A stretch of 64,000 nucleotides of DNA from a virus (lineage: Duplodnaviria; Caudoviricetes): the IMG/VR virus record IMGVR_UViG_3300021400_001366, positions 32,001 through 96,000 of that record; one strand, given 5' to 3'. Shown one piece after another: positions 21,853 through 33,027 of the stretch. Both the position numbers and the translations under genes were made by a program. Under the pieces are notes generated by a model. That model was not told the DNA's origin. It worked only from the letters and a program-made list of their open reading frames with translations, and did not search any database. Each line of letters opens with the position of its first letter. Position 1 is the first letter of the stretch.

Positions 21853-21862
21853 GGGGGGGGGG
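21853..21862 (+). repeat. G10 homopolymer forming the RBS region of the next gene
   Basis: TAA GGGGGGGGGG TGCGGCGAC ATG seen directly. Confidence 0.85.
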
Positions 21863-21871
21863 TGCGGCGAC

Positions 21872-22381
21872 ATGAAGAAAGAAAAGATGGTATTCAATCT
21901 TTCTCACAAAGATCAGGATGAATGGAGAGAGTACCCGATAGACATTGATTTTGTATTCTATCCTAAAGAATCTCACATGCATGGCTTCCACGATGAGCCT
22001 CCTAAAACTTTCAAGGGAGTCTACAAGGTTTATTACTGCTGGGCGATAGAGAAAACCAAGGGGCCACATCCTGCAAAACCGTTGTTTAGCATTGGCTGCG
22101 ACGAGTGTTCTGCCTTGACTGATTTGTCCGAAGTAATACGCCAGTGCATCAGAGAAAAGAAGGATAAACGCTGTTTAACGGCGGGTCAAGATGGTTCTGA
22201 CTGGCATTTATTCTTCATAAAACGTGGCTTTTATCCTGCTGCAAGAATCGGTTTTTACGTGTTTAGCAACTTCACTAACAAGGGCTATCGCTTCTATCTT
22301 GAAGCAGAACGCGCTGAACAGTTTGCAGATTTCCTCGATGAAGTGAACAACCATATGCTGGAGAATGGAGAACCGATATGA
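21872..22381 (+). CDS. hypothetical protein
   Basis: 169-aa ORF. Confidence 0.65.
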   Translation: MKKEKMVFNLSHKDQDEWREYPIDIDFVFYPKESHMHGFHDEPPKTFKGVYKVYYCWAIEKTKGPHPAKPLFSIGCDECSALTDLSEVIRQCIREKKDKRCLTAGQDGSDWHLFFIKRGFYPAARIGFYVFSNFTNKGYRFYLEAERAEQFADFLDEVNNHMLENGEPI

Positions 22382-22831: not shown

Positions 22832-23344
22832 ATGAAGATGGACAAAGTATGTGACAGCAAGAACGACGAGTTTTACACACCAGAATACGCGATCAGGCCA
22901 ATTATGAAGTACATTGCCCCCCCCGCAAAGATATGGTGTCCGTTTGATACTTCAGACAGTTTATTTGTGAAATGCTTTACAGAATCAGGCTATGAAGTTG
23001 TCAACACTCATATAAGCGATGGCGATGATTTCTTTGATATGGAAGTGCCAGAGTGCGATTACATAATCAGTAACCCGCCTTATTCGCTAAAAACGGAAGT
23101 GTTAGAACGTCTGTTTGAAATAGATAAGCCGTTTGCAATGCTTGTTGGCGTTGTCGGGTTGTTTGAAAGCAAGCGCAGGTTTGAAATGTTTTCAAACAAC
23201 ACTTTTGAGATTATGTACTTGAATAAGCGTGTTTCCTATTTCAAAGATTATTCAGAACAGAAACCATCGTTAAACCCTCCATTTAGTAGCGTATATGTCT
23301 GCCACAATTTACTGCCAGAGAAGATAGTATTTGAATGTGTATAG
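22832..23344 (+). CDS. small N6-adenine DNA methyltransferase with in-frame C8 tract (ON allele)
   Basis: DEFYTP, IWCPFD, DFF and ISNPPYS motifs; C8 at 22917-22924 encodes APP. Confidence 0.8.
   Translation: MKMDKVCDSKNDEFYTPEYAIRPIMKYIAPPAKIWCPFDTSDSLFVKCFTESGYEVVNTHISDGDDFFDMEVPECDYIISNPPYSLKTEVLERLFEIDKPFAMLVGVVGLFESKRRFEMFSNNTFEIMYLNKRVSYFKDYSEQKPSLNPPFSSVYVCHNLLPEKIVFECV
22917..22924 (+). repeat. C8 homopolymer in the 5' region of the MTase
   Basis: ATTG CCCCCCCC GCAAAG seen directly. Confidence 0.9.
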
Positions 23345-23356
23345 GAGGCGATTCAG

Positions 23357-24296
23357 TTGAAAACACCGGACGAACTTAGAGAAATCATAGCCAACGCCAA
23401 AGAAGAAGTCAGACAATTCGACCATCATACAACCTGGGATGATGTAAAGGATATGACTACTGCCGAAGCTATCAGCGTATTATCTAGGCTTGCAAACTCA
23501 GATGGCAGAGATTGGAGCGCAAGACCGCATCTCGCAAAAGCATGTCAAATGGCTATCGAAGCACTACGGAAGGAGAAGGATAATGAAGCCGATTCCTAAT
23601 GGTTATACATATACCCGCTGCGATCAGTACACGCCAGAAGAGTTTGCAAAGCGCCATACAGATTTTCGCGGAAAGCCCAGACCAATTTGTGTTGAGTATA
23701 TGCGGGATCATCCCAAGAAAGTGTATACCACGGATGACGATATTGCGCTAATCGAAATGCTGAATGAACGTAGCGTCGGCAGTATGATACAGTTGACAGG
23801 CAAAAACACCACGAAGCGCTATAAGTATGAGGTCGTGTAGATAGCAGCGAGAATAGAACGTATGAAAGAATACTATCCTGTCTATGACAGAAAGAATGGA
23901 TTGTATTTCATCAAAGATAAGCTACCAAACAACCAGACCATTATCATGTCGTTTGAAAACTACGATAATTCGTATGACACGGATTATTGGAATATCGCGC
24001 TATGCGTTGTGAACAAGCGTAAACACATCGACCATGTTTTTGATAACTGTGAAATCACTGGTGGCGATCCTGTTGCGACGGTTCGTATTGCCAGGGATAT
24101 GTTTTCTTCACTTGAAAACCAGATTATACGAGACATAGATTTATACGGCACGAAACAACACGTTTCATGCACATGGCTTGACGCGAAACGACGGAATGTT
24201 TATGCACATTTCTTGAAGCGGCGAGGGTATCAATACGGCATGTTTGACGGTAAGAAAGTATTGTACAAGGTGTATAAAGGAAGTGATGTTGATTGA
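23357..24296 (+). other. small hypothetical CDSs (23357-23599, ~23583-23840, 23862-24296)
   Basis: packed ORFs with RBS. Confidence 0.6.
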
Positions 24297-25972
24297 TTTT
24301 AACCGAAGATCAGGCAAGTAGAATATCATCAGATGGTTTAATCCATGACGCTGAACGCCTGAAAGAACTGCAAGCTCTACCGCTAGAACGTAAGATTGGC
24401 ATTTCAACGGCAAGAATCATTGAATGGTATCAGTATTGGAATGGCAACGTTTACGTGAGTTTTTCAGGCGGCAAGGATAGTACAGTTCTGCTACATCTTG
24501 TAAGAAGCATTTTCCCGGATGTGCCAGCGGTTTTCTCAAACACAGGTCTTGAATATCCTGAATTGCAGAAATTCGTAAAATCGTTTGATAACGTCATCAC
24601 TCTCTATCCTAAGATCGGTTTCCGTGAGGTTATTTCTACATATGGTTATCCGCTAATCAGCAAGGAAGTAGCTGAAGCTATTTACTATGCACGTAGAATT
24701 AAGCCTCAAAATACCGGGGGGGGGTATTCAAGACTACAAACCGGAAACGTACAGAACTCCAGGGATTGCGAGAGGATTCAGGGAAGCAACAGCAAAACGC
24801 AAAGACCTACTCGGAATACGGGGGGGGGCATCTCGAAACGGATCGTCGAAGGAAAGACCTGCTCAACCTCCGCTCCACGACTGGCGACGAATGGTTCTGC
24901 TCGGAAGCTGCCCCCCCCAAGTACAGACTGGACTAACTGGCGACGTGCATGTCTCTGCAACGCACAAAAACAATTTGGCGAGAAGAGCATGTTCAACAAG
25001 GAGAAGTGGTTGCCGATAGCGCGTGATCTGCCAGTGCCTATTTCTCATTACTGCTGCAATATAATGAAGAAACAGGTCATGAACAAATACGCGCATGAGA
25101 CTGGTCGTAAACCTATTATTGGAACCATGACCGAAGAAAGTCGAATGAGAAAGCAAGCGTGGATTCGTCATGGCTGCAATGCATTTGATAGCAAGAAAGC
25201 GTCCAGTCAACCGCTGAGTTTCTGGACTGAACAGGATGTTCTCACTTATATCAAGTTGTTTGAATTAGAAATCGCGCCAGTGTATGGCGACATCAACATT
25301 GTAGATAGTAAAGGCAATATCGTCGAAACCGACGAAGCTGGTATGCCTGAAGGTTGCAAGTGGGCTTGCAGTAAGTGTACAAGAACAGGTTGGTAATACA
25401 GCCGTGTGTAGTGGCGACATTACATATAATAATAGTGTGAACCCTATTGCTCAGGGGTGTGGCGAAAGCTGCTAACGGTGAAGCCCTTCACGGGGTAATA
25501 CCGTGCCGTTGATAATGCTTAAATTTATTGACGCTAAACAAGCAAATGTCAAATATATTTTACATTATTTGCGGTGTAACGACTATGGTGGTTGCACCAG
25601 TAGGACAGATGATGAGCTACTGTCCGAAGCGCACTACATCTCACTGAGATGAAGAGATAGTCTGGGCTTGTGGAAACACAAGAATAACCGTGTATATACT
25701 GCGGTTTCGGCGCTCACTTAGAGAAAGGCGAAACAAGGTTCCAGCGTCTTGCGAAAACTCATCCACGACAGTATGAGTATTGCATTGGCGGTGGTCAATG
25801 GGTAGATAATCCTGCTTATGATCCTACTGCCAGCATGGAGCCTGATGAAATGGGCTGGGTAAACTACAATCCGAAAAAGATATTCGTGCCTAGCAAAGAT
25901 GGCATTGGCCTGGGTACGGTATTCAAGATGGCTAACGAAGTCATGGGTTACGAATTGTACAGATGGGAGTAG
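24293..25972 (+). CDS. PAPS-reductase-family (PP-loop, Fe-S) protein, probable DNA-modification enzyme; join(24293..25390,25691..25972)
   Basis: SFSGGKDS PP-loop, GYPLISKE, CC, and a RTG|CIYCGFG motif restored by removing the intron. Confidence 0.88.
24716..24918 (+). repeat. three homopolymer tracts (G9 24716-24724, G9 24820-24828, C8 24911-24918) bounding two segments open in all three frames
   Basis: manual translation of the three frames. Confidence 0.9.
25391..25690 (+). mobile_element. group I intron, ORF-less (300 nt)
   Basis: P1 GGU|UG with CAGCC gives a U-G pair at the 5' site; core AACGACUA and AAGAGAUAGUCU; terminal G; removal restores RTGC. Confidence 0.9.
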
Positions 25973-31690: not shown

Positions 31691-33027
31691 GAGACATAAA
31701 TGAAATTTCAGACGTTCAAGCAGAAAGCGGTATCATAGGTACATTAATCTATCACCCAGAGTTTATCATGTACTCTGACTACCTAAAAGCAAGCTACTTC
31801 ATCGGACGTGAAAATGGCGCGGTCTATTGGGCTATTGGCGAGTTGTACAAGGAAGGTATTACCACAATCGACGCTTTCAATCTCACGAATAAGATCAAGA
31901 GCAACCGCGCCGTCCAAAGGGTACTTGAAGAAAAGAATCTGATTAACGTCCACGAATACATTGAGTTATATAAGGAAACCGCAAGAAACTCTGTTGAAGA
32001 ATACCGGCTCCTGGTGAATAGGGTTGTTACCATGTCGTTTAAACGCGATATGGTCAAGGCGCTGAATACCATTGAGAACGATTGCTACAACAGCGATACC
32101 GACCTCGAAAAACTCAACAACAATGTATACCGCGACATCGACAAGCTGACAGAGAAGTATTTCTTTTCTGAGGATGTACGAACGCTTGGCAGCGACATCG
32201 ACAGGATTTGGGATGAGATCGTAAGCCGAAGGACAGCAGACGGTATTTACGGTTTGCCATCAAAGTACAAGAGTTTCAACGAGTATTTCACTTATGAACC
32301 TGGCGAACTTGTAGTTATTCAGGCAAAGTACAAGCGCGGTAAATCCGTGTTCCTGATGAATGAGGTTGTAGATAAGCTCAAAAACGGTGTTTCCTGTCTG
32401 GTCGTTGATAGCGAAATGCCGACGCGACTATACGTTGAAAGGTTGCTTGCGCATCTTAGCGGCGTAGACGTAAGGCGAATCAAGAATGGCGATTACAGCG
32501 CAGAGGAATCAGACAATCTTGCAAGATGGCGTGATTGGTTGAAAGAGCAGCCGTTCATTCATATCTATGATCCCAATATGACGATGGAACGCCTATATGC
32601 CATTTGTAAGATTCAGAAGCGGAAGATGAATCTGGGGTTTGTAGTTTATGACTACATCAAAAGTAATGCCACATCATCAAGCGATAACTACAATCTGTTG
32701 GGTGCTATGTGTGACTTCCTCAAGAACAACATAGCTGGCGAACTAGATTTGCCTGTTTTAGCGGCGTGTCAGCTAAACCGTCAGGGTGAAGTTGCTGACA
32801 GCATGAAGATCAACCGCTATCTGTCAGTTGGCATTATATGGGATTTCAAGACGCAAGAGAACATCGTCAAGGATGGTATGGAGTGCGGCAATGCGTTTGC
32901 CAAAATCTACGTGAACCGCTTGGGGAGACAGATGATGGACGAAGATGAATACATAGACTTCTTCTTTAGCGGCGACAACATGACGATTCAGGAAGCAACA
33001 CAACATTCCGCTGATACAACATTCTGA
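31687..33027 (+). CDS. dnaB: replicative DnaB-like helicase
   Basis: AESGIIG N-domain, Walker A variant AKYKRGKS, SEM, VYDYI, ACQLNR. Confidence 0.88.
   Translation: MRDINEISDVQAESGIIGTLIYHPEFIMYSDYLKASYFIGRENGAVYWAIGELYKEGITTIDAFNLTNKIKSNRAVQRVLEEKNLINVHEYIELYKETARNSVEEYRLLVNRVVTMSFKRDMVKALNTIENDCYNSDTDLEKLNNNVYRDIDKLTEKYFFSEDVRTLGSDIDRIWDEIVSRRTADGIYGLPSKYKSFNEYFTYEPGELVVIQAKYKRGKSVFLMNEVVDKLKNGVSCLVVDSEMPTRLYVERLLAHLSGVDVRRIKNGDYSAEESDNLARWRDWLKEQPFIHIYDPNMTMERLYAICKIQKRKMNLGFVVYDYIKSNATSSSDNYNLLGAMCDFLKNNIAGELDLPVLAACQLNRQGEVADSMKINRYLSVGIIWDFKTQENIVKDGMECGNAFAKIYVNRLGRQMMDEDEYIDFFFSGDNMTIQEATQHSADTTF

Follow-up and report, generated by a model that had tools for sequence, protein, structure and literature searches.

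Slippery tracts and hidden frames in the linker of a phage enzyme

A gene for a PP-loop enzyme of the phosphoadenosine phosphosulfate (PAPS) reductase family, carried by a virus of the class Caudoviricetes, contains three homopolymer tracts in the region encoding a flexible linker, and this linker is probably a hypermutable multi-repeat contingency locus. The gene lies in the IMG/VR record IMGVR_UViG_3300021400_001366, of which positions 32,001 to 96,000 were analyzed (64,000 nucleotides (nt), termed the window; all coordinates refer to it), and is listed as an open reading frame (ORF) at 24293-25396 on the plus strand, as are the tracts, segments, modules and exons described below. According to the proposed mechanism, slipped-strand changes at the tracts G9, G9 and C8 would shift the frames of the two intervening segments independently of each other. 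Since both segments are stop-free in three frames, the full-length enzyme would result whenever the tract changes add up to 0 mod 3, which applies to 9 of the 27 frame states, and the other 18 would lead to truncation (OFF). The full-length states would differ in the basic [KR][KR]xx[LVI]x[GN] module, if any, that each segment supplies, resulting in one to three modules in total, and the window is compensated in such a way that neither variable module is read.

The linker is enclosed by two conserved blocks in the gene frame, GYPLISKEVAEAIYYARR upstream (24644-24697) and KSMFNKEKW downstream (24983-25009), which served as anchors. Tract 1 is a G9 run (24716-24724) preceded by CC at 24714-24715, tract 2 is a second G9 run (24820-24828), and tract 3 is a C8 run (24911-24918) that restores the frame of the downstream domain. 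Between them lie segment 1 (95 nt, 24725-24819) and segment 2 (82 nt, 24829-24910), both of which are free of stop codons in every sense frame. A preliminary description, made from the letters of the DNA alone, had reported these tracts and segments together with off-frames that close at 24934 and 25017 after the last tract, and the frame scan bears this out: frame +1 is stop-free between 24669 and 25017 and frame +2 between 24700 and 24934.

Translation of the silent frames revealed the modules TTNRKRTELQGLR (24733-24771, frame +2) and EATAKRKDLLGIR (24783-24821, frame +1) in segment 1, and ETDRRRKDLLNLR (24835-24873, frame +2) and LHDWRRMVLLGS (24873-24908, frame +1) in segment 2. The frame that is read in the window (+0) has no module in either segment and retains only the fixed module C, WTNWRRACLCNA (24929-24964), which carries the family-conserved motif W..WRR.CL.N in frame +0 and is always joined to the downstream domain. 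All four hidden copies and the fifth one in frame, as they had been described before, were therefore located, and so were the two DNA-level duplications that link the copies (AAAGACCTRCTC at 24801 and 24853; ACTGGCGACG at 24880 and 24936).

The three-frame openness of the interval 24725-24910 (186 nt) is beyond chance. It was reached in 0.055% of dinucleotide-preserving shuffles (mean 5.1 stops), and synonymous recoding of the current frame left both off-frames open in 0.025% of the trials (mean 6.4 stops). On the opposite strand, this interval contains 5 stops, as expected. Only six G or C runs of at least 8 nt are present in the 137,609-bp virus record, three of them in the linker. A search of IMG/VR with an exact 33-mer of segment 1 gave no match.

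The protein alleles compared here are the members of the 90% cluster of the window protein, plus P0002. Among near-identical DNA sequences from other samples (92-100% identity) all three tracts vary, with lengths of G8-G11 and C8-C10: CC-G9, CCC-G9 and CCC-G8 were found at tract 1, G8, G9, G10 and G11 at tract 2, and C8, C9 and C10 at tract 3. The window has the genotype CC-G9, G9, C8; L001 has CCC-G9, G8, C8; L177 has CC-G9, G11, C9; and L178 has CCC-G8, G10, C9. For L104, in which tracts 1 and 2 are outside the coverage, tract 3 is C10. The frame is kept in the window, L001 and L177, and L178 (protein P0130) is truncated.

These differences translate into four in-frame isoforms and one OFF allele in nature. 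Both segments are read in frame +0 in the window (P0001), and neither contributes a module to the full-length protein. P0002/L001 reads segment 1 in frame +2 (TTNRKRTELQGLR) and segment 2 in frame +0. P0128, P0132 and P0133 read segment 1 in frame +0 and segment 2 in frame +1 (LHDWRRMVLLGS), and P0134 combines frame +0 with frame +2 of segment 2 (ETDRRRKDLLNLR), all of them at full length (for P0133 and P0134, the frames were derived from the proteins only). P0130/L178 likewise reads +0 and +2, but is uncompensated at tract 3 and ends at 242 amino acids. In natural alleles, segment 2 is thus read in each of its three frames and segment 1 in two, and the compensating tract changes that had been predicted from the window exist in P0002/L001, P0128, P0132, P0133 and P0134.

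L001 and L178 have source runs with neighbouring accession numbers. Over positions 544-2050 of L001 (1.5 kb) there is not a single substitution between them, and indels, one set at each of the three tracts, account for every difference, which indicates that the tracts mutate far faster than the surrounding sequence. With length variation on constant flanks, and with expressed as well as truncated alleles, the locus shows two of the features that characterize simple-sequence-repeat contingency.

Repeats, hidden modules and a putative recoding site across the family

For a family-wide view, 87 related loci from IMG/VR, JGI, ENA and Logan were anchored on the two conserved blocks, 77 of them with distinct linkers; the loci are not phylogenetically independent. 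Counting runs of G7-G15, C7-C11, (AG)4-15 and (AC)4-15 in these 77 loci, we obtained a repeat density of 4.59 per kb in the linkers and 0.069 per kb elsewhere, a 66-fold difference. Simple repeats thus recur at the linker site (63 of 77 linkers with at least one), and the first repeat is always located immediately upstream of module A, irrespective of its type. The net frames between the anchors are distributed as 39, 19 and 19, so that about half of the loci are out of frame. Clusters with flanks of at least 93% identity vary in repeat number, and one group of 16 contigs, four of which are titled 'human gut metagenome', spans (GA)5 to (GA)14 and three net frames. A public protein collection contains at least 1020 N-terminal ORFs of the family that are truncated. 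In 112 truncated tails examined, ERER occurs in 64, GGG in 33 and THTH in 16, which is what (AG)n, G-run and (AC)n repeats, respectively, would encode.

The openness of the inter-repeat DNA extends to the relatives as well. Of the inter-repeat segments, 41 have a length of 45 nt or more; 28 of these are stop-free in three sense frames compared with 0.61 expected, and the 41 segments contain 24 stops in total, in comparison to 170 after shuffling and 103 on the reverse strand. The off-frames of related phages have therefore largely remained open instead of accumulating stops.

For the core of the module, [KR][KR]xx[LVI]x[GNC], 117 occurrences were counted in the sense frames, compared with 3 on the reverse strand and 4.5 in shuffles. 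For the analysis 114 instances were kept, and 34 of these are in frames that are joined to neither anchor. When the linker peptides of the window were scored against the in-frame linkers of 102 homologs (null 99th percentile about 23-24, null maximum 24.8 for segment 1 frame +2), segment 1 reached 36.3 bits in frame +2 and 25.7 bits in frame +1, and segment 2 reached 27.8 bits in frame +2. The current frame scored 17.2 bits in segment 2 and 24.4 bits in segment 1, the latter from a single hit, and frame +1 of segment 2 was not significant against the same linkers (20.6 bits). Judged by these scores, what homologs read in their linkers is closer to the off-frame peptides than to the current frame. 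The relatives also read alternative frames rather than aligning to the current one throughout: L090 reads module A with B hidden, and the reverse applies to L093, a member of this clade; both modules are hidden in L094, and one of these is read in P0162.

Sequence divergence points in the same direction. Between the window and L177, one of the 186 inter-tract positions differs, in contrast to 42 of 895 in the rest of exon 1 (Fisher p = 0.006), where 40 of the changes affect the third codon position. Divergence no slower than that of synonymous sites would be expected of a disordered linker under neutrality, and the conservation fits constraint in more than one frame.

The AlphaFold2 model of the homolog P0006 has a confident core with a mean predicted local distance difference test score (pLDDT) of 85, and the linker is its sole low-confidence region (pLDDT 38-65). 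The preliminary description had spoken of variant helices, and short helices are indeed predicted where module A (residues 144-153) and module C (residues 181-190) lie, but with the low confidence of this region, which is too weak for a claim of docking or DNA binding.

In a part of the family, the junction to the downstream domain may have a different solution. The +1 programmed frameshift site of prfB, the gene of release factor 2, reads AGG GGG UAU CUU UGA C. A similar site, (A/G)GG(G/A)GG TGT CTT TAG C, with a Shine-Dalgarno-like GGGGG or GGAGG, a 3-nt spacer and CUU UAG C, is present in 52 of the 87 family loci. In L101, L102 and L128, for example, it is located 31 nt upstream of the KSQFNKEKW block and terminates the ...WRRGCL frame. 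The relative frame is identical for all 52 sites, and a +1 shift out of it leads into the downstream domain, for which reason the family appears to use recoding. In contrast, the site is absent in the window, where the junction CTC TGC AAC is hard-wired in frame (TGT CTC TGC AAC). In a clade with (AG)n and a G run (L101, L102, L103, L128, L131, L138, L151), the third frame repeatedly ends in a conserved ...PG and a stop just upstream of the prfB-like site, mostly as ...EPG and in L102 as ...KPG.

Alternative explanations for the variable linker

Several observations weigh against a multi-repeat contingency locus with meaningful linker isoforms. The linker is predicted to be mostly disordered (residues 158-202 of P0006 with pLDDT below 50), and the close homolog P0003/L097 has a linker of 30 residues with module C only and no repeat, so that modules A and B are dispensable for the fold, and there might be no functional difference between the isoforms. 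In the close lineage, ON and OFF alleles stand at 6:1, a value that is biased by the protein clustering method. The low inter-tract divergence is based on few and partly non-independent comparisons and could be produced by recombination; against L001 and L178 the deficit has the same direction without being significant (p = 0.1). Codon-position entropy showed no periodicity in the unconstrained flanks of the hidden modules. As a test of selection on the modules themselves it was discarded as circular, because third positions vary most only where the search pattern constrains the sequence.

The main competing explanation is plain ON/OFF phase variation, in which the tracts only raise the switching rate and provide additional routes back to ON, while the content of the linker does not matter and each of the nine in-frame states amounts to the same ON enzyme. 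The disordered linker and the short linker of P0003 without modules A and B are both in line with it, and a classic ON/OFF switch is seen in the human-gut (GA)n clade, which has only one repeat and whose off-frames are full of stops. Moreover, the depletion of stops could result from selection for compensable states alone. We nevertheless regard this explanation as rather unlikely, as the hidden-frame modules exceed chance more than 10-fold (34 instances compared with at most 4.5 expected across three frames). In addition, the better match of the off-frame peptides to the homologs' in-frame linkers, and the conservation of the inter-tract DNA beyond the synonymous sites of the same gene, are not predicted by stop avoidance alone.

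Isoforms could also arise at the level of expression, if RNA polymerase or ribosome slippage on the G and C runs generated them from one genotype and the differences in the DNA were secondary. The prfB-like sites of the relatives are compatible with such recoding, as is a 2026 preprint on Mycoplasma bovis mod1, in which A5T frameshift suppression compensates (AG)n (bioRxiv 10.64898/2026.04.01.715767). However, the window lacks the CTT TAG site and continues directly in frame, and the tract differences are directly observed in the DNA, which makes this origin very improbable. Even less credit, close to none, can be given to a homopolymer sequencing or assembly artefact or to a structural RNA or DNA element in place of a coding sequence. 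Homopolymers of 8-11 nt are error-prone, and G9-C8 pairing is possible in a predicted fold. Yet the differences are mostly compensated and come from consensus contigs for which both samples and assemblers were independent, dinucleotide repeats behave likewise, and sequencing errors cannot produce evolutionary signatures such as hidden modules and openness in three frames. RNA structure across the tracts was rejected, with a fold z-score of -0.12 and no Rfam match in the linker, and does not explain the low divergence; furthermore, a C run is missing in relatives such as L090, which carry two G runs instead.

If the linker is a multi-repeat contingency locus, it would switch frequently and reversibly within the phage population, the hidden frames would be kept by selection through periodic expression, and the isoforms would probably differ in activity or in the binding of partners or substrates. 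A further-reaching idea, which we put forward tentatively, is that the linker stores coding information in three frames at once, with repeat length as the address: selected modules would be present in all frames, slippage would pick one of nine isoforms or OFF for each progeny genome, and the prfB-like +1 sites of sister clades would funnel several frames into the catalytic domain. The isoforms would then differ in the choice of target or partner, and the phage could vary a nucleic-acid-modifying enzyme without the need for a recombinase or reverse transcriptase.

The enzyme, its neighbourhood and related switching systems

The gene protein matches PF01507 with 66.7 bits (gathering score 22.5, E 3.3e-18), and the SGGKDS PP-loop motif is invariant in the homolog alignments, which places it within the PAPS reductase family of Pfam, as had been assumed before. 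The preliminary description had also drawn a connection to the DNA-modifying DndC and to a possible change of DNA-modification specificity, and these parts found no support, in contrast to the frame-switching core, which the natural alleles support. No DndC model was among the NCBIfam matches at E <= 0.001, a library that presumably includes one, and a Pfam scan of the ORFs flanking the gene detected no dndA, dndD or dndE. The NCBIfam search returned CysH, CysD and 'hypothetical' matches, all of them sub-threshold: the best CysH-type scores of 20-36 bits compare with equivalog cut-offs of 154-254, and no curated cut-off was reached. PHROGs labels the protein as 'phosphoadenosine phosphosulfate reductase', and matches in sequence and fold searches of the PDB were confined to CysH-like PP-loop cores, with the CysH structures 6vpu, 1sur and 2goy at the top of the Foldseek results (E 5e-7, template modelling score about 0.55, normalised to target length). 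The phage protein thus shares the PP-loop fold and SGGKDS with CysH, the assimilatory reductase of PAPS or adenosine phosphosulfate (APS). In contrast to CysH, to which it is about 15% identical, it has a large variable linker, a C-terminal region with four Cys residues and a further domain of about 90 residues. On this basis, it can be classified only as a generic member of the PP-loop/PAPS reductase superfamily. A megablast search of the gene against GenBank phages gave zero matches.

The ORF of the window stops early because a predicted group I intron of 300 nt (25391-25690) splits the Cys-cluster motif between RTG and CIYCGFG. The Rfam model RF00028 scored 33.6 bits for this interval (E 4.6e-6), which is under the gathering score of 50; the 5' exon ends with T and the intron with G, so that the boundaries fit a group I intron. 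Exon 1, with the PF01507 match, extends from 24293 to 25390 and holds the variable linker; its end was set against the intron-less allele L177. Exon 2 covers 25691-25972, and the predicted spliced reading continues to a single stop, resulting in 459 amino acids. The predicted intron is present in the window, L001 and P0132 and absent in L177 and in the 460-amino-acid alleles P0128, P0133 and P0134. It plays no part in the switch. P0007, a more distant homolog, likewise terminates at RTG.

Directly upstream, an ORF of 144 amino acids without family match (23862-24296) overlaps the start of the PAPS-reductase-like gene. Its position is kept in relatives (142-144 amino acids in L001, L177, L178 and the contigs of P0133 and P0134), for which reason its product may be a partner protein.

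Tracts also occur outside the linker. A C8 run (22917-22924) is located inside an N6-adenine-methyltransferase-like ORF (22832-23344) with an NPPY motif and weak Pfam matches. L177, which is 92% identical, has C9 at this site, and no gene is called there. By sequence, the ORF looks like a second phase-variable modification gene that is ON in the window. Pfam searches of nine neighbouring ORFs gave only this weak N6-methyltransferase signal (22832-23341) and YopX. A G10 run (21853-21862) ends 9 nt upstream of the ATG of the ORF 21872-22381 and may tune the ribosome-binding site or its spacing, an idea that derives from the presence of only G4 in L177. Finally, a G9 run (4463-4471) lies between the ORFs 4316-4477 and 4482-4973 (AHPPCT motif), which look like one gene split at the run and thus OFF. 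Pfam gave no match for these two ORFs; the split gene may be a methyltransferase, judging from a likeness of the N-termini.

It is solely these neighbouring methyltransferase-like genes with tracts of their own that suggest a role in nucleic-acid modification. If the enzyme acts on nucleic acid, as we infer, the locus could serve as bet-hedging against host defences.

Repeat-driven phase variation is textbook knowledge for bacterial surface and restriction-modification genes and, in phages, for receptor-binding genes. In the Campylobacter Fletchervirus studied by Sorensen et al. in 2021, polyG tracts reportedly reside in receptor-binding genes and act as on/off or truncation switches. PolyG-based diversity of Campylobacter phages has been published for the hypermutable tracts of Fletchervirus (Sorensen et al., Cell Rep 35:109214, as cited in PMC10877375). 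The feature shared with the present locus is the use of G homopolymers in coding regions, which give phages phenotypic diversity without a recombinase. In contrast, the three tracts described here bracket stop-free segments of an enzyme linker, and compensated states give alternative internal peptides. Phase-variable bacterial Type III mod genes carry (AG)n, and other bacterial modification enzymes have repeat switches as well, which we take up next with the published cases.

One of these is the polyG tract of the Type IIG enzyme cj0031 of Campylobacter jejuni (PMC4889913). As in the bacterial phase-variable methyltransferase genes, simple repeats are found here within the ORF of an enzyme, whose role in nucleic-acid modification is a presumed one in our case. 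The closest case is M. bovis mod1, for which two slippery sites within one ORF have been reported, with an 'XNOR' compensation between (AG)n and A5T (bioRxiv 10.64898/2026.04.01.715767). There, compensation reportedly takes place at the level of expression and restores one product, whereas in the phage family it is fixed in the DNA of natural alleles, and the other frames between the sites carry alternative conserved modules. The fucosyltransferase genes of Helicobacter pylori combine a poly-C tract with a translational frameshift cassette. In these genes the homopolymer sets the frame and downstream recoding restores it, which resembles the prfB-like site of the relatives, but differs from the window, where a third tract is used and no recoding site is present. 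We know of no hidden-frame modules in the fucosyltransferases. A literature search found no paper on the phage family or on stop-free multi-frame segments between repeats.

What distinguishes the present case is that the switch lies within an enzyme, that several repeats act at once and that the DNA between the repeats is open in three frames and contains conserved modules in each. The outcome is therefore a set of internal isoforms, four of which are seen in public assemblies, and not only on/off. Many lineages of gut and rumen phages share the architecture, with G, C, AG and AC repeats at the same codon position, and this recurrence with different repeat types points to selection for mutability at the linker site. 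In practical terms, gene callers split or mis-annotate the genes of this family, and many 'cysH' metabolic-gene calls in phages may belong to the variable PAPS-reductase-like family. If the isoforms differ in function, the linker would represent a new and very compact diversity generator and a rare example of sustained triple-frame coding.

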